A stretch of 64,000 nucleotides of DNA, from contig JAHLLH010000014.1 of the NCBI GenBank assembly GCA_020444265.1, positions 8,339-72,338 of the forward strand. Direction: 5' to 3'. Origin of the DNA: a bacterium (GTDB taxonomy: Bacteria > Electryoneota > Electryoneia > Electryoneales > Electryoneaceae). Each line of letters starts with the position of its first letter. The stretch's first letter is position 1. The translations under genes were made by a program, and so were the position numbers. The notes beneath the pieces were generated by a model. It had not been told where the DNA came from. It did not search any database and was given only the letters and a program-made list of their open reading frames with translations. Shown piece after piece: positions 16,432 through 39,939 of this stretch.

Positions 16432-16514
16432 GGAGGATTAGCCTAATTGGTAAGGCAGCAGTCTTGAAAACTGCCGGGTTAACGCCCTTGGGGGTTCGAG
16501 TCCCTCATCCTCCG
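16432..16514 (+). tRNA. tRNA-Ser (anticodon UGA)
   Basis: GGAGGAT acceptor stem pairs with ATCCTCC, plus a G discriminator. Anticodon stem-loop is GCAGT-CTTGAAA-ACTGC, with a long variable arm and a T-arm GGGGGTTCGAGTCCCTC. CCA is not cleanly encoded (the gene is followed by CACCA). Confidence 0.8.
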
Positions 16515-16525
16515 CACCATCTGAA

Positions 16526-16558
16526 CCGGATAGCTGGATAACCTGGCTATCCGGTTTT
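16526..16558 (+). terminator. rho-independent terminator hairpin after the tRNA (CCGGATAGC...GCTATCCGG then TTTT)
   Basis: Stem-loop followed by a T-run, read from the sequence. Confidence 0.5.
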
Positions 16559-16634
16559 CCACTCTGGCTCACGACGAGAGCACCCCTGTCCGGGTGATGT
16601 TGCATTGCGGGTTAGTAGAGCCTACCATTTCGAG

Positions 16635-17105
16635 ATGGGATGGTATACTGAACTGAACTGGACCGCGAAGGTCACACGACTGGGGTTGATCCTTGTGATC
16701 ATCGCCATTTCTGTCGTGTTCCCGGCGTTTCATACCCATGCCGGGGAGGATTTGTTCGACCTTCCTGGAGAGATCCCTCAACACGAGCACCATCAGGCCC
16801 CCGTGGACCCGGACCATCATGGGCATGATCATGACCACCATCATCACCAAGCGGCTGATCCTCTTCCATCCAACCACACTCATTCACATCCCGATCATTA
16901 CCATCAGCAGGTTGATTTTGAGCTGACCCGGATTTTGACCGGGAGCACGCACCTTTCCTCTCCGTTGCTGACCCTTGTCGGCCGGGTGACGATTCCTTCG
17001 GATACACGCCCCAGGCATTCTCTGAGAGCGGTCCTGTCTAACGAACTGACTCCCCGTCAGGTTGATCGGGACAGCTTCGCGTCCCGTGCCCCGCCCCTCT
17101 CCTGA
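16635..17105 (+). CDS. small His-rich membrane-anchored protein, a putative metal-binding accessory of czc cluster 1
   Basis: Transmembrane helix (LGLILVIIAISVVF) followed by HEHHQAPVDPDHHGHDHDHHHHQ...HTHSHPDHYHQ. Its C-terminal part is similar to the small protein of cluster 2 (39418..39939). Confidence 0.55.
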   Translation: MGWYTELNWTAKVTRLGLILVIIAISVVFPAFHTHAGEDLFDLPGEIPQHEHHQAPVDPDHHGHDHDHHHHQAADPLPSNHTHSHPDHYHQQVDFELTRILTGSTHLSSPLLTLVGRVTIPSDTRPRHSLRAVLSNELTPRQVDRDSFASRAPPLS

Positions 17106-17172
17106 AGTACCCCTGTTTAATCGCTGTCTACACAGACATTTTCTATCGGTACTACAGGTAAGGACTGTGTTT

Positions 17173-18399
17173 ATGACTAGGTCATTAACGCGGTTGTCCC
17201 TGCTTGTCCTCCTCCTATATGTGGCAGGAACAGCAAGTTTTGCAGAGACGACACGCATCGACTTCTCGCAGCTGGATGATCTCACCCGGGAGCAGAGCCC
17301 TGAGCATCAGATCATCGAGCTGGACTATACTCGCACGCTTTCCGCGCGAGACCGTGAACTGCAATGGTCCAACCCCGCTCTCATGTTGGATCGTGAGGAT
17401 GTGGGAACCGCAGCCGAACTTCAGTTTTCTATCGGGAAAGACATCGAACTGCCCTGGGTCCGAACCCAACGTCGGGCTGGATGGAACCACACCGTCTCCG
17501 CTGCTGATCTGGATCGTCAGCAGCGAACCCGGGATCTTCTTGCTGAGGTTAAAACGGGTTACGTGCGCCTGAAACTGAACCAGGAGTACATCACCCACCT
17601 GGATCAGCTCCAGCAAACCCTTACACAGGTGCAGTCCATCGCTTCGGAAAAACGGGCTGAGGGACATCTTTCTGCGGTCGAGGAACGACTCATTCAGTTG
17701 GCAGTGATCTCCCTGAATCGAGATCGTCAGGAAGTCTTGCAAAAACAGCGTCGCACACGTGCTGACTGGATGACAAAAACCGGCTTTCACGAAAGTGACA
17801 CCCTCGAACTGGTAACACCCGTCTCTTTTGAATTGATTGACTTGAATCGCGAAGACTATGCCACCCAAACCCTGGCAAAGACCCCCGCCATCCGAGCGGG
17901 CCAGGAGCGGGAACAGGCGCTTGTAGCTCAGGTGGCAATGGCTCGAGCGAGCCTTGTCAGGTCCATCTCGGTGTACGGCGGCCTGAAACAGATTGATCCA
18001 GACTTCAACGGGTATGTCGCGGGTCTCTCCTTCCAATTACCGGTTTTGAACCAGAACAAAGCTGCCGTGCAGGGTTTTGAGGCAGAGCGAAACAGGGTCG
18101 AGATCGAAACCAGACGAACCACCCGCCGTCTATCCCTCGAAGCTGAAGGGCTGGTGCAGTCCGCCCTGGAGCTTCGCGATCAGCTTGCACCGATTGCAGA
18201 TCAGTTTGGTATGGGTGGAGAACACCTGGAACGTCTTGTCACCTCCTATGAGGAGGGCTGGATGGGACTTACGGAACTGCTCAACGCAATCCAGATCGAG
18301 ACGACCGGTTTGAGTGACTATCACTCGATGCTGGTCAGCTATTACGACACCCTGTTCAGGCTTGAAGCCTTGTCGGGGAAGACCCTGGTAAGGTTCTAA
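17173..18399 (+). CDS. TolC-family outer membrane efflux protein (CzcC/CusC-like)
   Basis: Signal peptide MTRSLTRLSLLVLLLYVAGTASFA. Coiled-coil, TolC-like composition. It sits ahead of the membrane-fusion and RND genes. Confidence 0.8.
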   Translation: MTRSLTRLSLLVLLLYVAGTASFAETTRIDFSQLDDLTREQSPEHQIIELDYTRTLSARDRELQWSNPALMLDREDVGTAAELQFSIGKDIELPWVRTQRRAGWNHTVSAADLDRQQRTRDLLAEVKTGYVRLKLNQEYITHLDQLQQTLTQVQSIASEKRAEGHLSAVEERLIQLAVISLNRDRQEVLQKQRRTRADWMTKTGFHESDTLELVTPVSFELIDLNREDYATQTLAKTPAIRAGQEREQALVAQVAMARASLVRSISVYGGLKQIDPDFNGYVAGLSFQLPVLNQNKAAVQGFEAERNRVEIETRRTTRRLSLEAEGLVQSALELRDQLAPIADQFGMGGEHLERLVTSYEEGWMGLTELLNAIQIETTGLSDYHSMLVSYYDTLFRLEALSGKTLVRF

Positions 18400-18410: not shown

Positions 18411-19985
18411 ATGCTTCGATTCAAATACATGCTTCCAGTTTTGCTGTTTGCCGCCCTGTTTGCGGTGGCGGGCTGCGGGAATTCCAGTGACAACCGTCCG
18501 ATGGAATCCGCTTCGCACGGTCATGATCATGGTGAAGCGGACGATCACGGGCACGAGCATGGCGAAGAAACAGGCCACGCCGAGGGGGACATGGAACGCC
18601 CCACCATTGCTGTGACTCAATGGACGGAGCAGATGGAATTGTTCATGGAGTACCCGGCGATGGTCGTCAACCAACCCGGTCGCTTCATCATCCACCTGAC
18701 CGTGCTGAATGGATTCCAACCTGTCCGTGAAGGATCGGTCCGTCTCCAGTTTATCTCGAGCGACGGACATGCTCATGATTTGATCGAAAATCAACTGTTG
18801 CGCGAGGGAATCTTTGCTCCCACCGTCTCCCTGCACGACACGGGCGACGCCGATTTCATCCTTACCTACAGCAGCCCGACTGTGCAGGACACTTTCCTGA
18901 TCGGCGGCTTCACCGTGTACCCATCAGTCTCGCAAATCCCGCATGAGGAAGAAGGGGGTGGGGATGAAATCGGGTTCCTGAAAGAGCAACAGTGGAAAAT
19001 CCCCTTCGCCACCGCCGAAGCGGAAGTCCGTGAGATCAAACGCTCGACCTGGGCGATTGGTGATGTTCTTCCTGATCCCAACGGCTACAGCGAGATCATC
19101 GCCCCTGTTGATGGGATCGTGCAAGTACTCGATGATGGTCACCTCGCGCTTCCCGGTTCGCGGGTGACACGAGGCGAAAAACTGGTCCGGATTCTCCCCC
19201 CCGTGCAGGGGAACAGTTGGGTAGCAGCGCGTCTCGCCTATGAACAGGCGGAAAAGGAATATGAACGCGCAAAGCGACTCCAGGAAAAGCAGGCCATCTC
19301 CGTTCGTGAATTTGAAGGGATTCGCAGCGACTACCTCGAGATGAAGGCGGGGTTTGAATCGCTGAACGGAAGCGCAAAATCGGATCGCCTCATCCTTGAA
19401 GCGCCAATCAATGGTACCGTGATCGACTGGCAAATTCGTCCCGGACAGCAGGTTACTGCCGGAACAAAACTGATGGCAATTGCCGATCCTTCCACAGTCT
19501 GGCTGCAAGTCAATGTGTATGAAGACGAGTACACTCAACTTGGTCGTCCAGTTGGCGCCTTCATCCGGACAGGGGGAGAAGGCCAGGGGTGGGTCGTTGG
19601 CGAAGCGGACATGAATGTTCTCACTACGGGCGGTGCCCTTGATCCGAAGACTCGCACCATCCCCGTCCTGCTTGAAATCGCCAACCGTGAAGGACGCTTG
19701 CGGATCAACGAATCCACTCCCGTTGAGCTGTACGCCTCACTGGGTAGCAGCTCTGTTGCGGTCCCACGCAGTGCCCTCTACGAGGATGAAGGGATGGATG
19801 TTGTCTTTGTCCAGGCGGGTGGAGAAGCCTTCGAAAAACGAGTGGTTCAGATTGGTCCCCATTACAATGACTGGGTATCGATCCTCTCTGGTATTGCGGA
19901 AGGGGAGCATGTCGTCACACGTGGCGGTTACCATGTCAAGCTCGCGTCCACTTCTGCCGAAATCGGTCATGGTCACGCTCACTGA
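18411..19985 (+). CDS. efflux RND periplasmic adaptor (CzcB/CusB-like membrane-fusion protein) with His-rich N- and C-termini
   Basis: N-terminal HGHDHGEADDHGHEHGEETGH, typical membrane-fusion beta-barrel and lipoyl motifs, and a C-terminal IGHGHAH. Confidence 0.85.
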   Translation: MLRFKYMLPVLLFAALFAVAGCGNSSDNRPMESASHGHDHGEADDHGHEHGEETGHAEGDMERPTIAVTQWTEQMELFMEYPAMVVNQPGRFIIHLTVLNGFQPVREGSVRLQFISSDGHAHDLIENQLLREGIFAPTVSLHDTGDADFILTYSSPTVQDTFLIGGFTVYPSVSQIPHEEEGGGDEIGFLKEQQWKIPFATAEAEVREIKRSTWAIGDVLPDPNGYSEIIAPVDGIVQVLDDGHLALPGSRVTRGEKLVRILPPVQGNSWVAARLAYEQAEKEYERAKRLQEKQAISVREFEGIRSDYLEMKAGFESLNGSAKSDRLILEAPINGTVIDWQIRPGQQVTAGTKLMAIADPSTVWLQVNVYEDEYTQLGRPVGAFIRTGGEGQGWVVGEADMNVLTTGGALDPKTRTIPVLLEIANREGRLRINESTPVELYASLGSSSVAVPRSALYEDEGMDVVFVQAGGEAFEKRVVQIGPHYNDWVSILSGIAEGEHVVTRGGYHVKLASTSAEIGHGHAH

Positions 19986-20014: not shown

Positions 20015-23000
20015 ATGTTAGATCGACTGATGCGGATCAGCCTGCGTAACCGACTCATTGTCCTGGTTGCTGCACTGGCGATCCTGATCGTTGGAACGCT
20101 CGTCACCTTAAACATGCCGGTGGATGTTTTCCCGGACTTGACAGCGCCTACGGTGACCATTCTGACCGAAGCACACGGAATGGCACCCGAGGAAGTGGAA
20201 AACCTGGTCACCTTCCCGATTGAGACTGTGGTCAACGGTGCTTCGGGAGTACGAAGGGTTCGGTCCAATTCCATCCAGGGACTCTCCACTGTTTGGGTGG
20301 AGTTTGACTGGGGGACAGACATCTATGTCGCCCGTCAGATCATCAACGAAAAACTGCAGATCATGCGGAACACTCTCCCCGGAGGGGTCGATCAGCCAGT
20401 TCTTGCGCCGATCACCTCGATCATGGGAGAAATTATGCTGGTCGGCCTGACCGCCGACACCACCTCCCCGATGGACCTCCGTACACTGGCGGAATTCACC
20501 GTGGGACGTCGGATTCAAGCGGTTCCCGGTGTTTCGCAGGTGCTGGTCTATGGCGGAGAAACCCGTCAGTACCAGGTTCTGGTTGATCCGTACAAGATCA
20601 CCGCTCGGGGGTTGACCTTAGATGAAGTTCTGGATGCGGTCCAGGAAGCAAACATTAACGCCACGGGTGGCCTGTTCATCTCCTCCGGGCAAGAATACCT
20701 GATTCGTGGTCTTGGACGGATCAACAACATCGCGGAGTTGAAGAAAACCGTCATCACCACCGAAGGCCATGTCCCGGTGCTGGTCGAGGATATCGCGGAT
20801 GTGGTGATTGGGCCTGCATTCCGTCTCGGGACAGCTTCGATTAACAACGAGAACGGCGTCCTACTGGTCATTGCGAAACAGCCCGAAGCGAACACTCTCA
20901 CTCTGACCGACAACATTCTGGAAACTCTTGATGGCCTTCGTGCATCGCTGCCCGTTGACATTTCCCTGCACACGGAGATTTTCCGGCAGTCGGATTTTAT
21001 TCAGACCGCCATTGACAATGTTCTGAGCGCATTGGGTGAGGGTGCGGTGCTGGTCACCATCATCCTTTTCCTCTTCCTGGTCAATGTCCGGACAACCGTT
21101 ATTTCCGTTCTTGCCATTCCCCTCTCGCTGGTCATTGCCTTCCTTTCACTGAAACTGCTGGGAATGTCGGTCAATACGATGACCCTCGGCGGCTTGGCGA
21201 TTGCGATTGGTGTCCTGGTAGATGACGCGATTATCTATGTGGAGAATGTCTACCGCCGCATCCGTCAGAATGCGGAAGTCCCGGAGGCGGATCGTCGTCC
21301 CTTCGTTGATGTTGTGGCCGATGCCTCCAGCGAAATCCGATCCCCGATCGCGATGGCAACCTTCATCGTAATCGTGGTCTTTATCCCTCTCTTTTTCCTG
21401 AGCGGGGTCGAAGGCCGGATGCTCAAGCCCCTCGGGTTTGCCTATGTAATCTCGATTCTCGCTTCGCTGCTGGTGGCAGTCACCGTAACCCCGGCGCTCA
21501 GCTCGTTTTTACTGCGGAACATCGATCAGAAGAAAGAGCATGGCGATAGCTGGTTCGTTCGACAGTTGAAAAAAGCCTACGAGCCGAGCCTTGTCTACTT
21601 CCTGAAGCACAAAGGGATCGTAATCGGTGTATCTGCTGCACTGGTGGTTCTTGCGATTAGCATCCTGCCTTTCTTCGGACGTTCTTTCCTGCCAGAGTTC
21701 AACGAGGGCACATTCAACATTTCTCTCGCCACCCTGCCGGGAACCTCACTCGAGGGATCACACGAGATTGGGGGGATGGTAGAGAGTATCCTCCTTTCAA
21801 ACGAGGCGGTGCTCTCAACCGCGAGGCGGACGGGACGTACCGAGTTGGATGAGCATTCGCTGGGTTCACACGCTCATGAACTTGAAGTGCAGGTCGATCT
21901 TAGCAACATCTCGAAACAGGAACTACTCGAGCAATTGCGATCTTCCCTCACAATGGTGCAGGGGACGAACATCACCATTGGTCAGCCGATTTCGCATCGG
22001 ATCGACCATATGCTTTCCGGGACACGTGCCGCTATCGCTGTAAAGCTCTTCGGACCTGACCTCTATTCGTTAAGGAGGTACGCTGAGCAGATCAGGCAGG
22101 AGATGGCCGAAGTGGAGGGCCTTGTCGACCTGTTTGTCGATCAGCAAACCGATGTCCCGCAGGTACGCATCACGGTGGACCGTGAACGGATGGCGATGTA
22201 CGGCCTTCGCTCTGCGGACTTGGACGAATTGATCGACGTAGCTTTCCTCGGTGCGAAAACATCCCAGGTGTATGAGGGCGATCACCGTTACGATCTGATC
22301 GTGCGGTACGCAGAGGATTACCGTGACGACCTCGAATCGATCCGGAACACCCTGATAGATGTTCCCACAGGCGGAGCGATTCCGCTGGAGATGGTGGCAA
22401 ATATCCGTGAAGACCGTGGCCCGAACTACATCAGCAGGGAGAACGTGCAACGGAAAATCGTTGTTCAGGCGAATGTGTCAGGACGGGACTTGCGGGGGGC
22501 GGTGGAAGAGATTCGGGAAAAGATCTCGACCAATCTCGATCTGCCACGTGGCTACCATGTCGAGTATGGCGGTCAGTTTGAGAGTGAGGAGCAGGCGACA
22601 CGGACCGTCTTACTGTTGAGCATCGTCTCGATTATCGCGATCCTCGTCGTCCTTTACCTCGAGTTCGGCAATTTCCGTCAGGCTTTCCTCGTCATGGTCA
22701 ACCTGCCCCTCGCCCTGATTGGAGGCATTGTCAGCATCTTCTTCACCGAGGGCATCATCTCCATCGCTTCCCTGGTCGGGTTCATCACCCTCTTCGGGAT
22801 AGCTGTGCGAAATGGGATCATGATGGTCTCCCATTACAATCACCTGATGAACCAGGAGGGGAAGACCCTGTACGAGGCGGTTGTGCAAGGCTCCATGGAA
22901 CGGCTGAGCCCGATCCTGATGACCGCGATGACCACCGGCCTCGCCCTGATTCCGCTTGCAATGGCTGCGGACAAACCGGGATCAGAACTGCAATCTCCCA

Positions 23001-23125
23001 TGGCTTTTGTCATCCTCGGCGGATTGCTTACTGCCACCTTCTTAAACCTCGCAGTCGTTCCCGCGATGTTCATGAAGTGGGGTGTCCAACCCGTGGATGA
23101 AGCAAAACACAAAGCGTATTTCTGA
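20015..23125 (+). CDS. CusA/CzcA-family heavy-metal efflux RND transporter
   Basis: 1036 aa with the heavy-metal-efflux RND architecture (two large periplasmic loops and the conserved GGLAIAIGVLVDDAIIYVEN motif). Confidence 0.9.
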   Translation: MLDRLMRISLRNRLIVLVAALAILIVGTLVTLNMPVDVFPDLTAPTVTILTEAHGMAPEEVENLVTFPIETVVNGASGVRRVRSNSIQGLSTVWVEFDWGTDIYVARQIINEKLQIMRNTLPGGVDQPVLAPITSIMGEIMLVGLTADTTSPMDLRTLAEFTVGRRIQAVPGVSQVLVYGGETRQYQVLVDPYKITARGLTLDEVLDAVQEANINATGGLFISSGQEYLIRGLGRINNIAELKKTVITTEGHVPVLVEDIADVVIGPAFRLGTASINNENGVLLVIAKQPEANTLTLTDNILETLDGLRASLPVDISLHTEIFRQSDFIQTAIDNVLSALGEGAVLVTIILFLFLVNVRTTVISVLAIPLSLVIAFLSLKLLGMSVNTMTLGGLAIAIGVLVDDAIIYVENVYRRIRQNAEVPEADRRPFVDVVADASSEIRSPIAMATFIVIVVFIPLFFLSGVEGRMLKPLGFAYVISILASLLVAVTVTPALSSFLLRNIDQKKEHGDSWFVRQLKKAYEPSLVYFLKHKGIVIGVSAALVVLAISILPFFGRSFLPEFNEGTFNISLATLPGTSLEGSHEIGGMVESILLSNEAVLSTARRTGRTELDEHSLGSHAHELEVQVDLSNISKQELLEQLRSSLTMVQGTNITIGQPISHRIDHMLSGTRAAIAVKLFGPDLYSLRRYAEQIRQEMAEVEGLVDLFVDQQTDVPQVRITVDRERMAMYGLRSADLDELIDVAFLGAKTSQVYEGDHRYDLIVRYAEDYRDDLESIRNTLIDVPTGGAIPLEMVANIREDRGPNYISRENVQRKIVVQANVSGRDLRGAVEEIREKISTNLDLPRGYHVEYGGQFESEEQATRTVLLLSIVSIIAILVVLYLEFGNFRQAFLVMVNLPLALIGGIVSIFFTEGIISIASLVGFITLFGIAVRNGIMMVSHYNHLMNQEGKTLYEAVVQGSMERLSPILMTAMTTGLALIPLAMAADKPGSELQSPMAFVILGGLLTATFLNLAVVPAMFMKWGVQPVDEAKHKAYF

Positions 23126-23141: not shown

Positions 23142-23188
23142 ACGACACGTGTACCCCGGCTTGATTTCAAAGCTGGGGCACGTGTCGT
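23142..23188. terminator. bidirectional terminator hairpin between the convergent czcA and the FRD-like gene
   Basis: ACGACACGTGTACCCCGGCTT...AAGCTGGGGCACGTGTCGT, an imperfect inverted repeat. Confidence 0.5.
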
Positions 23189-23237: not shown

Positions 23238-24104
23238 TTAGAAAATCCAGGTGTATCCAAAGAGGGCGGCGACCACGATGTGAATAGCCAGGATGATGAA
23301 CATGACGATGGCGAAGGGACGGTGGATGACATGCCAGTAGTGAAGGATTTTCTGGGAGACCTGGAGGAAACGCATCCGTCGCTTGAGAAGGGTTCGCCGA
23401 CGAACCAGGTCGATGATATCCTTGATTTCCTTATTGCCGAGCGAGGCGCGCTTTTTCAATTCACCCCGTAACCCGGACAACGCAAGACGCAGCCGAACAT
23501 CCTGCCCGATCCAAGTGAAGATAGCTGCGAAACCAGTCTTCCGTTTCGAGACCGGGACAACATCCTCGTGCAGCTTCTCAATCAGTTCCTCGTCCACCCC
23601 GTGCACATCGCGGATCTGCCCCATCAACTCGTCATCGAGTTGTTCGAGCTGCTCGCCGGACATTGCGGCACCGGAGAGGCTGCGTGGAATCTGCAAGTAG
23701 ACATAGCGCCCGAGGAACCCCGACAGGGCCACCGCGAGCATTGACCAGAAGGCAATGGCGACAATGCCGCCGAACTTGAAGGTGGTGTGGAAAATGACCA
23801 GGATCGGCCCGGTGATGCCCATCCAGATATGGACATCCAGCCAGTGACGCAGGTTGCCCCAATCCTGCATGAAACGGAAGTGTTTCCGTGCGATGTAAAG
23901 CAGCAGCATTGACATCAGGATCGCCCCGGCGATGCCGAGCGCGTGCCCGATAAATCCTCCCGCCTTCCAGTCGGTGTGCAGGTCACTGTGGGGACGTTCT
24001 GTCAACGGAAGAGAGTAGTAATCCCAGCCGTGGTAGAGAATCCAGGCTACAACGATGCCGGTCAGGGAATAGAGAAAGATCATCAGAAAGCGGTGGAAGC
24101 GCAT
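23238..24104 (-). CDS. polytopic membrane protein with two bis-His pairs at 14-residue spacing (ferric-reductase-like di-heme-b fold); putative
   Basis: DVHIWMGITGPILVIFH and WHVIHRPFAIVMFIILAIH sit within predicted transmembrane helices. This resembles the His spacing of the FRD, MsrQ and YedZ superfamily. Confidence 0.45.
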   Translation of the reverse strand: MRFHRFLMIFLYSLTGIVVAWILYHGWDYYSLPLTERPHSDLHTDWKAGGFIGHALGIAGAILMSMLLLYIARKHFRFMQDWGNLRHWLDVHIWMGITGPILVIFHTTFKFGGIVAIAFWSMLAVALSGFLGRYVYLQIPRSLSGAAMSGEQLEQLDDELMGQIRDVHGVDEELIEKLHEDVVPVSKRKTGFAAIFTWIGQDVRLRLALSGLRGELKKRASLGNKEIKDIIDLVRRRTLLKRRMRFLQVSQKILHYWHVIHRPFAIVMFIILAIHIVVAALFGYTWIF

Positions 24105-25877: not shown

Positions 25878-25881
25878 CAGC

Positions 25882-32092: not shown

Positions 32093-32122
32093 GGTCCTTC
32101 TACCCCCTGCTGCCCAGTTCGG

Positions 32123-33436
32123 TCAAGATTCCCCGAATTTCCGTGTGAACTGCACGCCAACTCGCTCCAGAAACGCCGTCGGCAACTCCCCACCCGCGAA
32201 GATGAAAACCTGGTCATTGGGCAGTGTCACTGTCTCGCCAGCCTTGTCGAGGATGACTGCATCATCGAGGATTTCTTTCACCTCGGACAGCAAAATGAGT
32301 TCGATCTTGCCAGACTCTACCGCCTTGTCGAGACGATCTTTGTTGCCTTCTTTGATACGGAAAATGCGGTCACGGCGGTAGGAAAGATGGACCGTGTTGC
32401 CCTCTACATCGCTCAGGGCTACCGCCGCTTCCACTGCGCTGTCACCTCCACCGACCACGAGAATGTTTAGGTCGTGGTACTTCTCCGGATTCAGCATCCG
32501 GTAAGCGACCTTTGAAGCTTTTTCCCCCGGGCAGCCCAGTTTACGCGGGCTGCCGCGACGTCCAATCGCGAGCAGCACACGTTTTGCCTCGAACGTCTCG
32601 CCTTGCGCTGTGGTCACTGTGAAATGACCATTCGTTTTCTCGACCGTTTCCACCTTCTGTCCGGCATGCACCTTTAAATCGGCCACGCTGAAGATTTCGC
32701 TGAAGAGCTCCAGCAGTTTTTCTTTTTGCACTTCACGCAGTTTCAGTTTGCCGTAGATCGGCAAATCAACAGGTCGTGTCATCACCAGCTTACGTCGCGG
32801 ATAGGTGAGGACTGTTCCGCCCAGATCTTCCTGATCGACAATCGCAAAGTTTATCTTCTCGGTCCGTGCCGCCAACGCCGCACCCAACCCCGCTGGTCCT
32901 GCACCGACAATCACCAGGTCGAGCACTTTCTCCGCTCGTTTCTTCTCGTCTAGGCTCTTCGCGATGAACTGCGCCGCCTGGATGCCCTGGGTCATCGCAT
33001 TGCGAATCAACCCCATTCCACCCAGTTCACCAGCAATGTAGACTCCAGCCACATTCGTTTCGAATGTGCCCTTCAAGTGAGGGATGTCCACCCCTCGTTT
33101 TTCCGTGCCAAAGACGAGGGAAATTGCCTCTACCGGACAGGCGGCATGGCACATCCCATGGCCGATGCAGCGTGATGGATTGATCAAAGCACCGCGGTTG
33201 TTGATCAGGCCGAGCACATCCTGTTCAGGACAGGCACGGACACAAGCGCCGGAACCAATGCAGGTGTTGGGGTCAATCACGGGATGGAGGGAGACCGGTT
33301 CATCGAGGCCGAGTTCGATGGCCTTCTTCAGGGTGGTGGCCGCTTTCTCACTTTTGCGACGTTCCCGCAGCCAGTAGAGTGCGGGCACAAGAATGGTCAG
33401 CAAACCGACAACGACATAGATTAACACCTCGAGCAC
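32123..33436 (-). CDS. membrane-anchored fusion of a 2x[4Fe-4S] ferredoxin and an FAD/NAD(P)-binding oxidoreductase
   Basis: N-terminal transmembrane helix, two 4Fe-4S motifs (CIGSGACVRACP and CIGHGMCHAACP), then pyridine-nucleotide-disulfide-oxidoreductase Rossmann motifs (VIVGAGPAGLGAA and ILVVGGGDSAVEAA). First gene of the cytochrome operon. Confidence 0.8.
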   Translation of the reverse strand: MLEVLIYVVVGLLTILVPALYWLRERRKSEKAATTLKKAIELGLDEPVSLHPVIDPNTCIGSGACVRACPEQDVLGLINNRGALINPSRCIGHGMCHAACPVEAISLVFGTEKRGVDIPHLKGTFETNVAGVYIAGELGGMGLIRNAMTQGIQAAQFIAKSLDEKKRAEKVLDLVIVGAGPAGLGAALAARTEKINFAIVDQEDLGGTVLTYPRRKLVMTRPVDLPIYGKLKLREVQKEKLLELFSEIFSVADLKVHAGQKVETVEKTNGHFTVTTAQGETFEAKRVLLAIGRRGSPRKLGCPGEKASKVAYRMLNPEKYHDLNILVVGGGDSAVEAAVALSDVEGNTVHLSYRRDRIFRIKEGNKDRLDKAVESGKIELILLSEVKEILDDAVILDKAGETVTLPNDQVFIFAGGELPTAFLERVGVQFTRKFGES

Positions 33437-33673
33437 GGCCGCCTCAGAGTTAGGGAATCAGAACACTGAAACCTAAATAAATCTCAGGTATTCAGCACGG
33501 CTGCGATCCCCCCGACTGCCATTTCCAGCCCGCCGTATATATTCCTGCTAATTCTCTATAAAATATGGAATAGCAAATAGATGTGCTGCTGACAACACAG
33601 TGTTTTACTCTCCTAACAACAAAAATAAACGGGGGCTAAACTCCCTGTCACCTCCTTCTCTTCTTTGTCTAAA

Positions 33674-33701
33674 TCAACGGCTGCGCAGAAGCGCAGCCGT
33701 T
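33674..33701 (-). terminator. terminator hairpin downstream of the RND2 gene (CAACGGCTGCGC agaa GCGCAGCCGTTG)
   Basis: Perfect 12-bp stem in the region between the RND2 stop and the promoter region of the cytochrome operon. Confidence 0.5.
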
Positions 33702-33745: not shown

Positions 33746-36700
33746 TCATCTTGGATCAACCTTCATCCTTGATTCGAGTCGTCCCTCGAACCACTTGTAG
33801 AAGGCTGGTAGCACGAGCAGGGTCAGCAAGGTCGAGGTAACGAGGCCACCGACAACGACGGTCGCCAGGGGACGCTGCACCTCGCTACCGGTACCAGTCG
33901 CGAAGAGCAACGGGGTCAGGCCGAGGGCAGTGGTGACAGCGGTCATCAGCACGGCACGCATTCTAAGCATGGCGGCCTTGACCGACGCCTCGTCCAGCGC
34001 AATACCTTCCTTTCGTAACCCGTTCAGGGTGCTCAGCAGGACCATGCCGTTCTCGAGCGCTATCCCGAACAGGGCGATAAACCCTACCGATGAAGGCACC
34101 GACAGGTTCTGCCCGCTGATCCACAGCGCAAGAATGCCACCCACAAGTGCAAGGGGAATATTGAGCAAAATCAGCAGGGTGTTTTTCAGCGAATTGAAGC
34201 TTGTGTAAAGAAGCAGCGTAATGAGCAGCAGGGTAATCGGTACTACCACAGCAAGCCGTTTGTTGGCCTCCTGCTGCAAACGGAACTGCCCACCCCAAGT
34301 CACCAGGTAGCCAGCAGGCAAATCAACCTCCCTGGCGATCACCTGCTCTGCTTCAGCGACGAACGACCCGATGTCACGTTCTTCGACATTACACTGGATC
34401 GAGATGAAGCGTTGGTTGTCCTCACGTGTAATCTGTCGTGGGCCAGTAATGGTCTGGACATCCGCAAGCTGATCCAACGGCACCAGCAATCCGTCCGGAG
34501 TTGGTACAAGGATCGAACGAATCGCCTCTGGTGTACTACGTGCCTCCTCACGGTAGCGAACGACGATGTCGAAGCGACGAATCCCTTCGAAAATCTGACC
34601 CGCTTCCTCGCCGCCAACCGCCGCCGCAACCACTTCCTGGACATCTGCGATTGGAACACCGTAGCGAGCAATCGCTTCACGGTCAATTTGTACAAGTAAC
34701 TGAGGGGTGCCGCTAATCTGATCGACCTGGACATCACGAGCGCCGGGTACGGTTTGCAGCGCAAGGGCAATCTCATCAGCAGATGCTTTCAGCTGATCAA
34801 GATCATCGCCAAATAGTTTCACGGCCAGTTCTGCCTTCACCCCTTCCAGCAACTCATCGATGGTGGCCGCAATGGGCTGTGTGAAGCTGACGCGAGTCCC
34901 TGGGACATTACCAAGATCACCACGGATCAGGTCGACCAACTCCGGCTGGCTGCTTACACGCCACGTCGATTCATCGCTCAGCAACACGTACATTTCGACA
35001 CTGTTAACCGGATCGGTATGAGCGCCAACTTCCCCTCGTCCAATCCGGCTGACCACCTCTTCGACTTCGGGAATATCCATCAGGCGACGTTCCACAATCA
35101 TCGCCATCCGTTTGCTCTCCTCCAGCGCGATGGAGGGCGCCAGGGTGAGCCGGATCAGGAGGGTGCCCTCCTGAAGCTGAGGAGTAAACTCACTGCCGAG
35201 CTGGGTTACCCCAACACCACCCGTCAGCAACAGCACCACCACCAGCAGTACGGCCAGGCTTCGTCGTGAGATGAACTTTCGCAGCAGTGGTTCATAGAGT
35301 CGATTGAGCCCATTGATCATCTTCGACGAAACGGATCTGTCCCTTGAGCGATATCGTCTCCTCATCAACAAACTCGCCAGCACTGGCACCGCAACAATTG
35401 CATAGACTAACGATCCCGCCATCGCATAACCGATAGTCCAGGCCAGTGGACGGAACGTCTTCCCTTCCACGCCCTGCAAAGTCATGATCGGCGAGAAGAC
35501 AACGAGAATAATCAGGATCGAAAAGGTGACGGGACGCAGCACTTCGCCTGCGGCATCGAGGACAATTTGCCTGCGGTCCCCCATTCCCGAACTCTGCTGC
35601 AAACGTCGGTCAATGTTCTCGACCAGCACGACGGCACCATCGACCATCATCCCGATAGCAATCGCCAGTCCACCGAGCGACATCAGGTTGGCGGAAATAC
35701 CGGTTTGACGCATCAGCAGGAAAGCAAACAGCACGGAGAAAGGGATCGAGAGTGCAACGACAAGGCTGGGACGCCATCCGCCCATGAAGAGCAGGATGAC
35801 TAGAATGACAAGGACAACGCCTTGGCCCAGGGCGGAAAGAACGGTTGATACCGCAGCATCGACCAGACTTTTCTGGTCGTAATAGGGAACGATCCGGACC
35901 CCTTCTGGTAGAATCGTGTTGACCTCGTCCAGCTTCTTCTCAACTCGTTCAATCACAGACGAGGTGTTGCTTCCAAATAGTTTGATCACCTGCCCTGCAA
36001 CCACCTCTTCCACACCATTGTGGGTCTGGAGGCCACGACGTATCGCGCCACCTTCACGCACGTTGGCGATGTCATGAAGGTGGATCGGCACACCATCCAC
36101 CGACTTGACCACAACTCGATTCAGGTCATCAATACTTTTGGCCAAGCCAACTGAGCGGACGATATACTCTTCCGCGTTCTCCTCGACAAACTGCGCGCCG
36201 GTGTTGAGGTTGTTGGCTTTCAACGCCTCCACCACCTCGTGCAGACGGATGCCATACCTCAGCAGGGATGCGGGATCCACCACCACCTGGAATTGCTTCT
36301 CCCAGCCACCGATTCCAAGTACTTCGGTAACACCTGGTACGGTCTGGAGGTGGTACTTGATCAACCAATCCTGGATGCTGCGCAGCTCGGTCAGGGAACG
36401 TGTTCCGGTGGTATCCTCGAGGTAGTAGAAGAGGACGAGGCCCATTCCGGTCGAGATCGGTCCCATCTCCGGGTCACCAAAGCCTTCCGGGATCTGGTCA
36501 CGCGCCTCCTGCAAGCGTTCGTTGACCAATTGCCGTGCGAAGTAGATGTCCACGTCATCCTCGAAGTAGACATTCACCACCGACAGCCCGAAGTTGGAAA
36601 CCGAACGTACTTTTGTCAGGCCCGGCAAGCCGTTCATCACCGTTTCAACTGGATAGGTGATGTAGGTTTCCACCTCTTCCGGCGCCAATCCCTCGGTGAC

Positions 36701-36853
36701 GGTAAATACTTGCACCAGGTTGGGCGAGACATCCGGGAAGGCATCAACAGGCAGATCTCGGTAGGCTATCCAGCCCGCTCCCATGGTCAGCAGAAACAGC
36801 ACCACCACAAGCAGACGACCGGAGAGAGCGGATCGTACAATTCGATTCAGCAT
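33746..36853 (-). CDS. CusA/CzcA-family heavy-metal efflux RND transporter (second, paralogous copy)
   Basis: 1035 aa, same architecture and motifs as 20015..23125 (GGLAIAIGMMVDGAVVLVEN). Confidence 0.9.
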   Translation of the reverse strand: MLNRIVRSALSGRLLVVVLFLLTMGAGWIAYRDLPVDAFPDVSPNLVQVFTVTEGLAPEEVETYITYPVETVMNGLPGLTKVRSVSNFGLSVVNVYFEDDVDIYFARQLVNERLQEARDQIPEGFGDPEMGPISTGMGLVLFYYLEDTTGTRSLTELRSIQDWLIKYHLQTVPGVTEVLGIGGWEKQFQVVVDPASLLRYGIRLHEVVEALKANNLNTGAQFVEENAEEYIVRSVGLAKSIDDLNRVVVKSVDGVPIHLHDIANVREGGAIRRGLQTHNGVEEVVAGQVIKLFGSNTSSVIERVEKKLDEVNTILPEGVRIVPYYDQKSLVDAAVSTVLSALGQGVVLVILVILLFMGGWRPSLVVALSIPFSVLFAFLLMRQTGISANLMSLGGLAIAIGMMVDGAVVLVENIDRRLQQSSGMGDRRQIVLDAAGEVLRPVTFSILIILVVFSPIMTLQGVEGKTFRPLAWTIGYAMAGSLVYAIVAVPVLASLLMRRRYRSRDRSVSSKMINGLNRLYEPLLRKFISRRSLAVLLVVVLLLTGGVGVTQLGSEFTPQLQEGTLLIRLTLAPSIALEESKRMAMIVERRLMDIPEVEEVVSRIGRGEVGAHTDPVNSVEMYVLLSDESTWRVSSQPELVDLIRGDLGNVPGTRVSFTQPIAATIDELLEGVKAELAVKLFGDDLDQLKASADEIALALQTVPGARDVQVDQISGTPQLLVQIDREAIARYGVPIADVQEVVAAAVGGEEAGQIFEGIRRFDIVVRYREEARSTPEAIRSILVPTPDGLLVPLDQLADVQTITGPRQITREDNQRFISIQCNVEERDIGSFVAEAEQVIAREVDLPAGYLVTWGGQFRLQQEANKRLAVVVPITLLLITLLLYTSFNSLKNTLLILLNIPLALVGGILALWISGQNLSVPSSVGFIALFGIALENGMVLLSTLNGLRKEGIALDEASVKAAMLRMRAVLMTAVTTALGLTPLLFATGTGSEVQRPLATVVVGGLVTSTLLTLLVLPAFYKWFEGRLESRMKVDPR

Positions 36854-36862
36854 ACTCCCTCC

Positions 36863-38077
36863 CTAGTGAGCGTGACCATCGCCAAATGCGCTTTTACCCT
36901 GCTCAGCCTTCAGTACGAACGCATTGTCTGACACATAGGTCTGGCCTGCCTCAAGCCCTTCCCTGATCTCAAGCAAGGAGCCATTTTCCATCCCGATCTG
37001 AACCTGCACCGGGTGGTATTCATCCCCCTCCTGAACGTAAAGGTGCGGTTCGTTCTCGAGCTGGACGAGGGCAGACTTGGGGACTGCTACCGCCACTTCG
37101 ACAGGTTCGGTGAAGACATGGATGGTGACAAACAGGCCGGGGTTGAACCGCCCGTCAACGTTGTCGATTTCGGCACGGACTCGCGCGGTACGAGTCTCTT
37201 CCCCGACAATGGGTCCCACGTAGTCGAGATAGCCTTCCGCTGTTGGAATGCCGTATCCTGCATCAATGCGCACCTTCATCCCTTTCCGAACCAACCCGAG
37301 ATCGCGTGGATAGAGGTCGCCTTCCACCCAAACCCTCGACAGATCGGCGATGACAAACCCTTCATCCATATCTCCGACACGCTGGCCATTCACCAGAGAC
37401 CGCCGAATCACTTCACCATCCATCGGGGCACGGAGTTCGTAATGGGAGAGTTCGAGGTTCTCCTCCTTCGGCAGCCTCGCAATACGATCCTCATCAATGT
37501 TCATGGCGTGCAGGGTCTGCTCCGCTGTACGCAGCTCGATTCGCGCCTGTTGAAGATCGCGTTCCGCAGACTGCAGCTCTTCGACCGAGGTGATCCCATC
37601 ATCATGCAATGATTTCACGCGCTGGTAGTTGGAATCGGCAAGACGCAGTTGTTCGAGGCTTTCGAGGTAGATCGATTTGGCGTCGGCAAGCTGCTGGCTG
37701 TGCAACACAGCGAGGACATCGCCCGCGCGTACATGATCTCCCTCACGTACGTTAATCTTCCAGACATTCCCCGGGACCAATGGTGTGACATGAGCCATAC
37801 GGTCCGTGTTAATCCGTACGTCGCCGGGGAGATCGATCTCGCGGTAGAGAGTCCCACTTCCGGCAATGGCGAGCTGGATGCCGAATTCCTCCAGCTGGTC
37901 CAGAGTGAAATGAACACCACTTTCACCCTCCTCATGATCATCAATCTCACCCGCTTCTTGCTCGTGGTCATGACCCTCATGGGAGTCGATCTCGTGGTTG
38001 CTTCGAGAACATCCTGCCAGTAAAAGCACAAGGGCGAGGAAGGCAATCCCTCGTATCGTCTTCATGTATGTCATCAT
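36863..38077 (-). CDS. efflux RND periplasmic adaptor (membrane-fusion protein) with His-rich termini
   Basis: Lipoprotein signal (LLLAGCS), N-terminal HEIDSHEGHDHEQEAGEIDDHEEGESG, C-terminal GDGHAH. Paralog of 18411..19985. Confidence 0.85.
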   Translation of the reverse strand: MMTYMKTIRGIAFLALVLLLAGCSRSNHEIDSHEGHDHEQEAGEIDDHEEGESGVHFTLDQLEEFGIQLAIAGSGTLYREIDLPGDVRINTDRMAHVTPLVPGNVWKINVREGDHVRAGDVLAVLHSQQLADAKSIYLESLEQLRLADSNYQRVKSLHDDGITSVEELQSAERDLQQARIELRTAEQTLHAMNIDEDRIARLPKEENLELSHYELRAPMDGEVIRRSLVNGQRVGDMDEGFVIADLSRVWVEGDLYPRDLGLVRKGMKVRIDAGYGIPTAEGYLDYVGPIVGEETRTARVRAEIDNVDGRFNPGLFVTIHVFTEPVEVAVAVPKSALVQLENEPHLYVQEGDEYHPVQVQIGMENGSLLEIREGLEAGQTYVSDNAFVLKAEQGKSAFGDGHAH

Positions 38078-39324
38078 CGGATATTCTCCCCCTCTTCGGG
38101 TTGCAGAATGGAACGACCCGAGAGGCTGTCAAGGGTGATGTGAGTGTGAACGAGATCGCGCAGGGTGTCGAGGTAGTCAAGACGACGTTCCAGCCAGGTG
38201 CGTTGTGCAACCAACACATCCACATAGGATGCCCGCCCGGCCGCGTAACTGGTTCGCGCAAGAGTGAGGACCTGCTCGCTGGTTGGCAGCAGAGTGGTTT
38301 GGAAGGTGGAAGCACGTTCTCGCCTCGCGAGATAGACCTCGACCTGCTCCTCCCAATCTGCCTGCATTTCGAGTTCAAGTTGACGGGTGTCGCTTTGGGC
38401 AATCCGTTCCCGCGCCACCGCCGCTTGATGTTCTCCGACTCCACCTAAGGCGAACCAGAAGGGGATACTCATCCCGATCTCGCCCCCCCATTGGGAAGCT
38501 TCTGAATCCGTCGGGAGATGCTGACGAAACCCACGTATCTCGAAGGTCGGCAACCAACCGTTCGCGGCGATGGTCCGATCTCGTTCACGAGCGGTTACTT
38601 CTTGTCTCGACCACATCAGTCTGGGGCTTCTCTGCCACTCCGTCGACAGTGCCTCGGGTAGCCAGATAGAATCATAGGGAGCCGCCAGTGGCCGACGAGG
38701 ATCGTCCTGACCGGTCAAGGCTTTCAAATGTGCCCAGCAACCCTTCAGACGAGCTCGTTCAACCTGTAAATCCGCTTGAACCTCAGCCGCTTCGGCATGG
38801 GCACGGCTCGCATCAAGGTCCGGGATTCGACCCACCTCATTCATGCGCTGGAATGTGTTCGCCTGGCTGTCAACACTAGCGGCAAAGGTTGTCAAGATCA
38901 CCAGGCGTTCCTGCTCATACCAGGCATCTGCAAAGGCACGTCTCACCTGGTGCTCGAGGTCGAGCAGCATGCTCTTCCGCTGCTGACGCGCCGATTCGAC
39001 TCGAGCATTTTCCCGCTGCAACCGCCAGACCGTACGCAAAGGAAAATCAAAGTCCTGCTGAACTGCGATCCGTCGCTCTTCATACTCACCGAACCCCGCA
39101 CCGGAAGGAATCCCTTCCAGCTCGTAGCTCACTTTTGGTGCTTCCGGGGAAAGGGTAGCACGTCTTGTACCATGTGCTTCTGCTTCGATCGCATCAGCTC
39201 GTTCACTTGCCGGGTGGTTCTCCAGCGCCGCGCGAGCGGCCTGCTGGACAGTCCAGGGAGTGGTGGCAGCGGCCATACTCCAACCCATGACCAGACCCAG
39301 GACGACCACAAACAATCGTCTCAT
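38074..39324 (-). CDS. TolC-family outer membrane efflux protein (CzcC-like), cluster 2
   Basis: Signal peptide MRRLFVVVLGLVMGWSMAAA. Overlaps the start of the membrane-fusion gene. Paralog of 17173..18399. Confidence 0.8.
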   Translation of the reverse strand: MRRLFVVVLGLVMGWSMAAATTPWTVQQAARAALENHPASERADAIEAEAHGTRRATLSPEAPKVSYELEGIPSGAGFGEYEERRIAVQQDFDFPLRTVWRLQRENARVESARQQRKSMLLDLEHQVRRAFADAWYEQERLVILTTFAASVDSQANTFQRMNEVGRIPDLDASRAHAEAAEVQADLQVERARLKGCWAHLKALTGQDDPRRPLAAPYDSIWLPEALSTEWQRSPRLMWSRQEVTARERDRTIAANGWLPTFEIRGFRQHLPTDSEASQWGGEIGMSIPFWFALGGVGEHQAAVARERIAQSDTRQLELEMQADWEEQVEVYLARRERASTFQTTLLPTSEQVLTLARTSYAAGRASYVDVLVAQRTWLERRLDYLDTLRDLVHTHITLDSLSGRSILQPEEGENIR

Positions 39325-39417
39325 GATATACAACCTCTGTTCACCGACAGAGATTTCCCATCGGTGGATGTTCACGTAAACCGTTTAAAGTCAATTTGAA
39401 TAAAGGAGGAGCTGAGA

Positions 39418-39939
39418 TCAGCTCAGCAGAACCACTGTGAGGTCCGACGTGGGGTTGGACAGCGCGAAATGACTCGCTTCTTGAATGAGGGAGGCAGAAG
39501 GAGTGTAGAGTACAGATGCAGAGGAAAGAGTAGGATTGCCAATCACGGCCAAACGAGTTTCAAGCGGCTTTGGCTTGGGTTGCGAGCGATCCAGGTGGAA
39601 TCTCCCAAGCTTGATCACGACATCCGAACAGGGATGCAAATCGTCCATGTGATTGGCAGGATTATCGAAATGAAGATCATCGTCCGTGCAGGATGGTGCG
39701 ATGAGGGATTGCTCGCAGAATGCATTGATGCTCGACTCGTAGGCCACATGTCCGCTGGACGTACCCGTGCAGAGCATGATCAGCCCATCTCCCGCGAGGG
39801 AGAAGAAGAGGCTGAACAACAGCAAAGGTACCAAAACCAGTCGAATACGACCCACGAACGTCCTCCATCTGCCTGACACGCTTGAGTATACGGTGTGACT
39901 ACGAAGCTGTTCCACTCTTGGGAGACATGTAGGAGACAT
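39418..39939 (-). CDS. small Cys/His-containing secreted or membrane protein, a putative metal-binding accessory of czc cluster 2 (start uncertain)
   Basis: Hydrophobic leader LVLVPLLLFSLFFSLAG. C-terminal region ...TRLAVIGNPTLSSASVLYTPSASL... resembles ...TRILTGSTHLSSPLLTLVGRVTIPS... of the cluster-1 His-rich protein. Confidence 0.45.
   Translation of the reverse strand: MSPTCLPRVEQLRSHTVYSSVSGRWRTFVGRIRLVLVPLLLFSLFFSLAGDGLIMLCTGTSSGHVAYESSINAFCEQSLIAPSCTDDDLHFDNPANHMDDLHPCSDVVIKLGRFHLDRSQPKPKPLETRLAVIGNPTLSSASVLYTPSASLIQEASHFALSNPTSDLTVVLLS

Follow-up and report, generated by a model that had tools for sequence, protein, structure and literature searches.

A probable mosaic of two dissimilar metal-efflux operons and a cytochrome cassette beside a tRNA-Ser gene

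The established picture of tripartite metal efflux, drawn from the CusCBA and ZneCAB systems, is of an inner-membrane trimer of the resistance-nodulation-cell division (RND) type, a hexameric adaptor and an outer-membrane duct that together span the cell envelope. Among the heavy-metal-efflux (HME) members of this family the closest described systems for the present purpose are ZneCAB (class HME3a) and CzcCBA (HME1) of Cupriavidus metallidurans, CusCFBA (HME4, Cu(I)/Ag(I)) of Escherichia coli and NieA of Cupriavidus neocaledonicus STM 6070, which is encoded in a nieIC-cep-nieBA operon. Two further kinds of system are relevant, namely the porin-cytochrome conduits known as Mtr (Shewanella) and Pcc (Geobacter), and the islands, metal-resistance islands included, that are associated with tRNA genes. 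Likenesses to all of these come together in a block of ~23.4 kb (16518 to ~39990) within the window analysed here, a stretch of 64,000 nucleotides (nt) from an uncultured bacterium of the Fibrobacterota-Chlorobiota-Bacteroidota (FCB) group (assembly GCA_020444265.1, contig JAHLLH010000014.1, positions 8,339 to 72,338).

The block starts right after a tRNA-Ser(UGA) gene (16432-16515, plus strand; found by ARAGORN and with an Rfam tRNA score of 61.6 bits), which forms its left edge, and it holds three parts. Module A (cluster 1; 16.6-23.15 kb, plus strand) is by its signatures a NieA-like HME-RND tripartite efflux operon, module B (23.15-33.65 kb, minus strand) is a self-contained cytochrome cassette, and module C (cluster 2; 33.65-39.95 kb, minus strand) is an HME-RND operon of another subclade with a ZneB-like adaptor. 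How did two such efflux operons come to face each other across a set of cytochrome genes? A preliminary description of the window took the two clusters for paralogs and for the arms of a large inverted duplication, within an island that was horizontally acquired or rearranging and that coupled metal efflux with reduction. The comparisons set out below point, with a good measure of confidence, to a different history: the block is probably a mosaic variable region at a tRNA-Ser(UGA) hotspot, composed of three independent modules, and is neither a duplication nor a single acquired island. It would thus be the product of repeated gain and replacement at a hotspot next to the tRNA gene. The observations that carry this reading are the gene content of the block, the class signatures of its pumps, the dissimilarity of modules A and C, and the three states that the locus takes in three related genomes.

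The tRNA-Ser locus in three related genomes

All that is available of the relatives is short metagenome contigs, and related contigs and loci are given L-numbers here: L065 is a 4-kb ENA scaffold, and L005 and L064 come from Logan sample ERR15087788. The window sequence itself is also present in the Logan assembly of SRR14069905. A left-flank protein used alone as query gave no match in the metagenome scan, and an alignment-based scan then succeeded; an exact look-up for strain-level variants of the right-flank lipoprotein returned only the window's own contig.

The simplest state is that of L065. This scaffold carries an HDOD gene, a gene for a protein of 431 amino acids (aa) and tRNA-Ser(UGA), and then, after ~180 bp, homologues of the two genes that lie just right of the block, all collinear with the window. 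The first of these two (40020-40313, plus strand) encodes a small lipoprotein and is the first conserved gene right of the block, its homologue in L065 standing directly after tRNA-Ser; the second (40394-40681) encodes a 95-aa protein. In the alignment, L065 positions 1545-4037 correspond to window 16104-13618 (77% identity), positions 1125-1277 to 16516-16366 (93%, 153 nt covering tRNA-Ser) and positions 73-908 to 40914-40063 (74%). L065 is an empty site, from which the whole of 16518 to ~39990 is missing. The block therefore directly follows the 3' end of a tRNA gene, and a related genome has the corresponding site without it. On the left, the homology of the window with both L065 and L005 stops at ~16517; on the right, the intergenic sequence has diverged, so that the junction can be placed only between 39940 and ~39995. 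Just inside the left edge lies a hairpin (16526-16558, plus strand), CCGGATAGC...GCTATCCGG followed by TTTT, which reads as a likely terminator for tRNA-Ser; L065 carries another hairpin at this position.

A partial state is found in L005, the closest relative, together with L064. L005 is 80% identical to the window, and only across 33617-23239, which comprises the cytochrome operon and the region upstream of it. About 130 nt past the stop of m1, the last gene of that operon, and beyond a conserved hairpin, L005 breaks off after 29 nt that match the 3' end of tRNA-Ser exactly and are oriented as expected, while L064 begins in the other half of a tRNA-Ser(UGA) and runs into the 431-aa and HDOD genes at 79% identity. 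With the tRNA end so close to m1, and with L064 continuing on its other side, cluster 1 is absent between tRNA and operon. At the opposite end, upstream of the first cassette gene, m6, the place of cluster 2 is taken by an RND pump fused to an outer-membrane-factor domain, 24% identical to the cluster 1 pump over 322 aa. In this fusion gene (L005:1-2314, Logan ERR15087788_93843) the permease is joined in frame to a TolC-like domain, and the called product is 1477 aa long. The synteny comparison that the preliminary description had proposed thus yields both an empty and a partly filled site.

These states can be ordered, with some caution, by the nucleotide identity of the flanks, which is 79.4% between window and L064, 76.9% between window and L065 and 75.2% between L064 and L065. 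The figures weakly place L065 as the outgroup, and on this placement a single gain in the window lineage is the simplest explanation for cluster 1 and likewise for cluster 2; the cytochrome operon was either gained before the split of window and L005 or lost in L065. Another candidate outgroup, L066, identified from a 57%-identity relative of a flank protein, was set aside as uninformative, its locus being rearranged and its contig stopping in the tRNA. The sequence of events would then begin with a cassette already beside tRNA-Ser in the common ancestor of the window genome and its closest relative. Module A would next have been inserted between the tRNA and the cassette, and module C would have arrived at the far end, or replaced another pump there, in the window lineage.

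A short stretch of L005 just past the tRNA-Ser 3' end (L005:12720-12760) deserves mention beside this junction. Its sequence, CGGATCAACTCGAACCAC, resembles the 3' part of the tRNA, GGATGAGGGACTCGAACCCC, and it may represent what is left of a partial, decayed copy of the tRNA, an att-like scar where tRNA and cassette meet; nothing like it was seen in the window.

Several points weigh against the history proposed here. Only three lineages are compared and the identity differences among them are small; L005 and L064 are separate contigs that both break in the tRNA, and the 29 nt could in principle belong to another tRNA-Ser with the same 3' end. Among the large open reading frames (ORFs) of the block and of 6 kb on either side, Pfam gave no integrase, transposase or mobility domain, nor did the small ORFs at 39.4-42.2 kb, when scanned permissively, yield a mobility gene. 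A direct repeat of the tRNA 3' end was found nowhere in the window with probes of 16 and 25 nt at up to three mismatches, and neither a search for repeats over 14-46 kb nor one with 9-mers gave any beyond chance. The block resembles its flanks in GC content (0.55-0.58 across it), in GC at third codon positions (GC3), in codon usage (distance 0.09-0.12, against 0.105 +/- 0.021 in flank genes) and in 4-mers, and so is not separable from them by composition. With neither mobility genes nor a repeat nor a deviating composition to go by, how and in which direction the locus changed is argued from parsimony over the three lineages. In addition, a cluster-1-type operon stands beside the cassette in the distant L014 as well, in the opposite orientation, which exceeds a simple estimate of chance; this double occurrence leaves some room for a functional link, two cases amounting to a lead. 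Finally, the substrates discussed below for both pumps are read from motifs alone.

Set against the tRNA-associated islands, the block therefore presents a mixed picture. It shares with them, and with the metal-resistance islands in particular, a position at a tRNA 3' end, absence from a relative, a mosaic cargo and metal-resistance genes; it differs in being without an integrase, a flanking repeat of the tRNA end or a deviating composition. As regards the acquired or rearranging island of the preliminary description, the variable block at tRNA-Ser and the empty site in L065 speak for it, and what falls away is the single acquisition and the classical hallmarks.

Of the alternatives, the one that survives best is that the whole block is ancestral chromosome, from which L065 lost everything while L005 lost cluster 1 and exchanged cluster 2. 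The flank-like composition, codon usage and 4-mers and the lack of mobility genes and att repeats all agree with it, and so does the cluster-1-type operon of L014, whose divergence from the window (76% identity for the pump, 57% for the adaptor and 39% for the outer-membrane factor) falls in a range like that of the cassette genes (65% to 39%). However, such a history would demand that cluster 1 was lost precisely and independently at least twice (in L005 and in L065), where one gain would do. The adaptor offers a further objection. More than 1189 homologues of the cluster 1 adaptor are found at E<=1e-40, the best of them other than itself being only 60-65% identical and spread through several phyla of the FCB group (Zixibacteria, Krumholzibacteriota, Eisenbacteria and Bacteroidota, besides unnamed bacteria). 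That of L014, at ~55-57% identity, ranks only ~80th, so that some 80 homologues of other phyla are closer to the window adaptor, and a joint descent of efflux module and cassette in L014 and the window is improbable. In L014 the cluster-1-type operon is also turned the other way relative to the cassette than in the window, and the cassette itself lies in unrelated contexts in L002, L006, L007, L012 and L067. An ancestral block is for these reasons considered unlikely, although it keeps a real share of the probability, and the stepwise assembly of a mosaic at tRNA-Ser is preferred.

The cytochrome cassette and its neighbours

Module B is an operon of six genes (23238-33436, minus strand) with 76 CxxCH motifs in three cytochromes. 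The first gene, m6 (32123-33436), encodes a predicted membrane-anchored protein in which a 2x[4Fe-4S] ferredoxin is combined with an FAD/NAD(P)-binding oxidoreductase (Pfam Fer4_10 and Pyr_redox_3). Three multiheme c-type cytochromes follow, with motif counts of 20 for m5 (30356-32092), 37 for m4 (27445-30396) and 19 for m3 (25882-27411). The counterpart of m4 in L001 is called as 960 aa, which places the start of m4 near 30327. Both m4, with its 72-aa internal repeats, and m3 are built of repeats of 216-219 nt (72 aa), and their last 300 nt (25884-26183 and 27447-27746) are 81% identical to each other. In L002 and L006 a single longer gene replaces m3 and m4, and thus the number and size of the cytochromes vary among relatives. 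Next comes m2 (24255-25877), a predicted outer-membrane beta-barrel of 540 aa, whose AlphaFold model (mean predicted confidence, pLDDT, 81) has, besides a signal peptide and a small N-terminal beta domain, a barrel of ~22-24 strands. Foldseek matches the model to outer-membrane barrels in general and 61 homologues were found, with no match in Pfam or NCBIfam and, by sequence, no place in the MtrB/PioB or Pcc barrel families. The last gene, m1 (23238-24104), encodes a membrane protein of 288 aa with a weak DUF4405/cytochrome b-like Pfam match below the cut-off, and it is conserved at 93% in L005 and 80% in L002.

From this gene content the cassette reads as an envelope-spanning electron conduit, in which electrons would pass from the iron-sulfur flavoprotein at the cytoplasmic face through 76 hemes to the outer-membrane barrel. 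The likeness to Mtr and Pcc concerns the cassette alone and lies in the predicted barrel gene that adjoins very large multiheme cytochromes, as well as in weak matches of the cassette to the DmsE/MtrA family and to MtrC domains; the conduit pattern is in this way present in part. Unlike those systems, the cassette has a barrel with no sequence match to the known families and only generic fold matches, far higher heme numbers (19, 37 and 20), and two additional components in the iron-sulfur flavoprotein and the small b-type-like membrane protein.

Boundaries are visible at both ends of the cassette. Between the convergent genes of the cluster 1 pump and m1 lies a GC hairpin (23151-23177), which is kept after m1 in L005 and marks the right edge of the cluster 1 module. 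A related GC hairpin (24203-24229) stands on the other side of m1, the two (CCCCGGCTTG...CAAGCCGGGG) having 27-nt arms that are 81% complementary; as the second falls between m2 and m1, m1 may be transcribed apart from the rest of the cassette. Upstream of m6 an AT-rich region of ~250 nt is conserved with L005, whose homology reaches 33617 and so takes in the promoter region. A further GC hairpin, AACGGCTGCGC-TTCT-GCGCAGCCGTT, follows the cluster 2 pump gene (approximately 33665-33700, minus strand) and is a likely terminator between cluster 2 and the cytochrome operon. Together with the hairpin behind the tRNA, the two that part the cassette from the neighbouring pump genes make the modules look like separate transcription units.

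Is the cassette, then, a unit in its own right? Cytochrome-operon relatives come from several FCB-group lineages, namely Calditrichota, Zixibacteria, KSB1 and Candidatus Electryonea clarkiae. The comparison of L012:3289-12428 with L014:3328-12467 is the clearest, in that an 85% nucleotide identity sets in exactly at the m6 start and breaks off exactly at the m1 stop, the flanks being unrelated; from such sharp limits it follows that the cassette behaves as a discrete transferable or relocatable unit. Its surroundings are correspondingly varied: in L002 it stands between a DUF374 gene and tRNA-Arg with a photolyase gene, in L006 next to a DEAD-box helicase gene and an ArsR-family gene, and in L007 among secretion-tail proteins, and in L067 it is followed by a fucosidase-like gene. 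In three lineages a tRNA gene lies ~100-500 bp from the cassette, namely tRNA-Ser in the window, tRNA-Arg (CCU) at L002:13165-13239 and tRNA-Gln (CUG) at L014:3152-3225. As a general trait of the cassette, tRNA adjacency was rejected, since only the window, the L002 group and L014 show it among ~58 loci and none of ~50 more distant ones does.

To ask whether the pumps belong with the cytochromes, the cassette was followed through species-representative genomes with an alignment-based scan (the m2 protein alone had given no match in the genome collection), which yielded 56 loci; flanks of ~10 kb were fetched around them, many contigs and flanks being short, and neighbours were sought by tblastn with all 14 window proteins. 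Three of the 56 have genes like either cluster in the fetched flanks. In L014 a cluster-1-type operon follows directly after m1; in L045 a pump 41% identical to that of cluster 2 lies ~7 kb past the barrel gene; and L047 has an adaptor and an outer-membrane factor. Conversely, three cluster-1-type modules (L068, L069/L070 and L071-L073) that were sampled regardless of cytochromes share the same four-gene layout and are surrounded by ChrB/EamA/FmdE genes or by arsenic-resistance and thiol-redox genes, and cytochromes are never adjacent.

The proposal that the pumps work with the conduit, exporting metals that are released, reduced or mobilised in the periplasm, so that selection keeps them adjacent, has to be judged on these counts. 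In its favour, both ends of the cassette adjoin an HME-RND operon in the window, L014 has an apparently independent arrangement of the same pair, and some RND system lies within 10 kb of the cassette in L005, L045 and L047. On the other hand, 53 of the 56 loci, with their often short flanks, are without a gene like either cluster, the metagenome relatives L002-L004 and L067 likewise, and the sampled modules sit in chromate, arsenic or thiol-redox contexts. The type of the neighbouring pump differs even between the window and its closest relative L005, terminator-like hairpins separate the units, and no shared regulator or riboswitch was found with Pfam and Rfam, the latter giving the tRNA alone upstream of the pumps at E<=1. 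Coupling is therefore improbable, the link between efflux and reduction made in the preliminary description is not upheld, and the neighbourhood of pumps and cytochromes is most likely fortuitous. A narrower version, in which the NieA-like histidine-based operon and the cassette form a real partnership, the pump clearing metals mobilised by the conduit and the modules assembling at tRNA-Ser without a resident integrase, draws on two lineages, the window and L014, with opposite orientations and with adaptors that are not each other's closest relatives; it too would be a surprise. On the preferred reading the cassette and the efflux operons are independent modules of a mosaic.

Two efflux operons of different class

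The gene content given for the clusters in the preliminary description holds: each has a small protein, a TolC-like outer-membrane factor, an adaptor and a CusA/CzcA pump (Pfam, TIGR00914), cluster 1 on the plus strand and cluster 2 on the minus strand of the window, on either side of the cytochrome operon. Against the curated cut-off of 701 bits for TIGR00914, pump 1 scores 797 and pump 2 1139 bits. Both pumps carry in transmembrane helix IV (TMH IV) the HME-RND motif x-x-G-x3-D-x-x-x3-[VIM]-E-N, both are without the first aspartate of the DFG found in HME1-3a, and in both clusters OEP and HlyD_D23/RND_mfp genes adjoin the pump. From the family assignments and what is established for CusCBA and ZneCAB, each cluster would form a tripartite pump spanning the envelope, with an RND trimer driven by protons through the Asp/Asp(Gly)/Glu of TMH IV, and both would export periplasmic or cytoplasmic metal cations.

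Cluster 1 opens with a gene for a small membrane-anchored protein (16635-17105) that has 21 histidines and no match in Pfam or NCBIfam; it is a candidate periplasmic metal-binding accessory protein. In L014 and L068 a similar histidine-rich ORF precedes the outer-membrane gene, and L069/L070 have a small unannotated ORF in this place. The outer-membrane factor follows (~17170-18399; Pfam OEP, 27 bits), its ORF opening at 17062 and its likely start being an ATG ahead of the signal peptide. The adaptor (18411-19985, 524 aa; TIGR01730, 112 bits) opens with a lipoprotein signal and a histidine-rich stretch; an extra N-terminal region comes next, then a CzcB-like core, and the protein ends in GHGHAH. 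The core alone is recognised, by Pfam HlyD_D23 over residues 210-433 only and by ZneB from the PDB over residues 249-506 (54 bits). The extra region of ~150-190 aa (residues ~60-205) has no match in Pfam or PDB and is conserved in L014, for instance in RPTIAVTQWT[ED]QMELFMEYPAM and LREGIFAPT; it might be the counterpart of the separate cep gene of the nie operon. Pump 1 itself (20015-23125, 1036 aa) closes the operon.

The class of each pump was read from a residue-by-residue alignment to ZneA and CusA, with positions taken from Fig. S7 of PMC7060636. TMH IV of pump 1 is AIGVLVDDAIIYVEN, that is AIG-VLV-DDA-IIY-VEN; at the positions of ZneA 136, 602, 610, 654 and 658 it has E, H, E, H and H, with an alignment ambiguity of one residue near 610; the 602-610 loop is HSLGSHAHE (H-x4-H) and 654-658 is HRIDH (H-x3-H). 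The NieA rows of the same figure give AIG-x3-DDA-x3-VEN, E H E H H, HAEGVHASE and HRLDH, for a class labelled 'HME5?' that its authors proposed as new and putatively nickel-exporting. Pump 1 thus carries every tested signature of this NieA-like class ('HME5?', or class 6, in PMC7060636); it is in addition equal to NieA at two of three distal positions (Q and L), and a small extra gene comes first in both cluster 1 and the nie operon. The same motifs recur in L014 and in L068, where they read AVG/AIG-VLV-DDA-IIY-VEN, HRIDH and HS[LM]GSHAHE. There are differences too. The host is an uncultured FCB-group bacterium and not a betaproteobacterium; the likeness is one of signature residues to a protein whose function is only proposed; cluster 1 has no separate cep between the outer-membrane and adaptor genes, its adaptor having the extra N-terminus instead; and its small protein is extremely rich in histidine. 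With a proximal site lined by histidines, histidine-rich adaptor tails, the small histidine-rich protein and the proposal for NieA itself, a borderline-divalent substrate is suggested, and module A would probably export ions of the Ni/Co type, Ni(II) and Co(II), or possibly Zn(II) or Cu(II).

Cluster 2 begins with a small ORF (39418-39939) encoding five cysteines and seven histidines, for which the public gene call is 145 aa (39418-39855); it has a hydrophobic N-terminus, a signal or membrane segment, and belongs to no family known to Pfam. It is followed by a TolC-like outer-membrane factor (38074-39375; Pfam OEP, 117 bits), by a ZneB/CzcB-like adaptor (36863-38077, 404 aa; Pfam HlyD_D23, 150 bits) and by pump 2 (33746-36853, 1035 aa). 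The adaptor has a histidine-rich N-terminus and a C-terminal GDGHAH and is ZneB-like over its full length (114 bits against ZneB in the PDB); against the NCBIfam CzcB/NccB family it scores 183 bits, under the cut-off. The names IhpB (206 vs 450 bits for the adaptor) and IhpA (40 vs 650 bits for the outer-membrane factor) were considered and not used.

Pump 2 departs from the named classes. Its TMH IV is AIGMMVDGAVVLVEN, that is AIG-MMV-DGA-VVL-VEN, the five ZneA positions are L, H, E, A and E, the 602-610 loop is HTDPVNSVE and 654-658 is ATIDE; aligned to CusA and ZneA it has neither the CusA methionine triad nor DFG. Its nearest cluster representatives share AIG, the histidine at 602, the glutamate at 610 and [D]E at 657-658. 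Since its signatures lie outside the named HME classes, pump 2 is placed in a different, uncharacterised HME-RND subclade. Many of its best database matches are 1420-1490 aa long, P0285 having an outer-membrane-factor-like tail and P0291 an adaptor-like one.

The described classes can be taken in turn. ZneA (4K0E) and ZneB (3LNN) are the best matches among solved structures, ZneA giving 717 bits with pump 2 and 507 with pump 1, and ZneB 114 bits with adaptor 2 and 54 with adaptor 1. The tripartite C-B-A arrangement of ZneCAB and CzcCBA is shared, the glutamate at ZneA 610 is kept and pump 2 has Asp-Glu at 657-658. However, both window pumps have AIG where ZneA and CzcA have DFG in TMH IV, so that the first aspartate of the D-D-E triad is missing in both, and where ZneA has its carboxylate proximal site, pump 1 has histidines and pump 2 has L/H/E/A/E. 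The CzcA/CnrA/ZneA type (HME1, 2 and 3a; DFG-x3-D[GS][AS]-x3-[VM]E[NA]) was rejected for both on these grounds. With CusCFBA the likeness consists of an A-x-G at the start of TMH IV, a score of 697 bits for pump 2 against E. coli CusA and a small accessory gene in the operon, but M573, M623 and M672 of CusA are replaced by R/S/E in pump 2 and S/A/H in pump 1, TMH IV is not DAA...IEN, and the small proteins of the window are not CusF-like and have no Pfam match. A CusA-type assignment (HME4; A-[VI]-G-x3-DAA-x3-IEN) was rejected, the methionine triad being absent and TMH IV reading DGA...VEN or DDA...VEN. For pump 2 alone HME3b was also considered, HmyA being closest to it by TMH IV only, and was rejected because the HmyA-like pattern (AIG-x3-DGS-x3-VEN, DPQGQNEST, DRVDE) faces DGA, HTDPVNSVE and ATIDE.

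The two clusters are consequently no inverted duplication as far as their sequences can tell. A blastn comparison of their DNA gives fragments of 15-62 nt only, the one noticeable stretch being the 26 nt that code for the C-terminal H-x-H-A-H tail of the adaptors. In the pairwise alignment that had been suggested for dating the duplication, the pumps are 37% and the adaptors 25% identical, the outer-membrane factors do not match significantly (best E 0.07) and the small proteins do not match at all. In phmmer pump 2 scores 687 bits against pump 1, below its scores against ZneA and CusA, and among 150 listed representatives of clusters made at 50% identity (1003 to 679 bits), ~140 outscore pump 1 against it. 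In a segmental duplication the arms would align as DNA and the partner gene would be the closest homologue; here neither is the case. The preliminary description had itself named membership in different RND subfamilies as what would speak against paralogy, and the pumps do belong to different HME-RND subclasses, so the duplication reading is refuted. A single acquired island that owes part of its make-up to the inverted duplication of a czcCBA-like cluster on either side of the cytochrome locus is accordingly scarcely credible. It is true that the gene order is the same on opposite strands, that the adaptor ends are histidine-rich with a shared final HAH, that both pumps fall in TIGR00914 and that a tRNA stands at the start of the block. 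Yet the DNA of the clusters shows no similarity, protein identity runs from 37% down to undetectable, the class signatures differ, pump 2 is closer in score to ZneA and CusA than to pump 1, in the closest relative the cassette comes without cluster 1 and has a different pump where cluster 2 lies in the window, and the C-B-A order and histidine-rich adaptor tails are general for such operons, adaptor 1 having more than 1000 homologues.

Chromosomal setting and significance

In the left flank (2981-5978 and 10119-12398) lie genes of ordinary central metabolism, for the beta and alpha subunits of oxaloacetate decarboxylase and for a malic enzyme to which a phosphotransacetylase-like domain is fused, and they support a chromosomal context. 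On the right, ~4.7 kb past the block, lies a DEAD-box (DbpA-type) helicase gene (44650-46431) that is 61% identical to L006:4-1752; the L006 helicase directly adjoins the cytochrome cassette, in a relative orientation opposite to that of the window. Its presence at both places may go back to an older synteny or be due to chance.

Metal-efflux cargo in variable regions next to tRNA genes is already known, and nothing here overturns current understanding. What the locus offers is, in the first place, the correction of an attractive but wrong reading, since look-alike efflux operons that stand face to face need not be a duplication. The cytochrome cassette appears as a discrete unit to which the flanking pumps do not belong. 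A widespread and uncharacterised efflux module, which joins a small histidine-rich protein and a long adaptor to a histidine-site pump, can on its signatures be placed in the NieA-like class, and to our knowledge no member of this histidine class has been tested; a second HME subclade is flagged, without an assigned substrate. Finally, three states of one site in three related genomes give a view of how a variable region at a tRNA gene would have been built up step by step in an uncultured bacterium of the FCB group.

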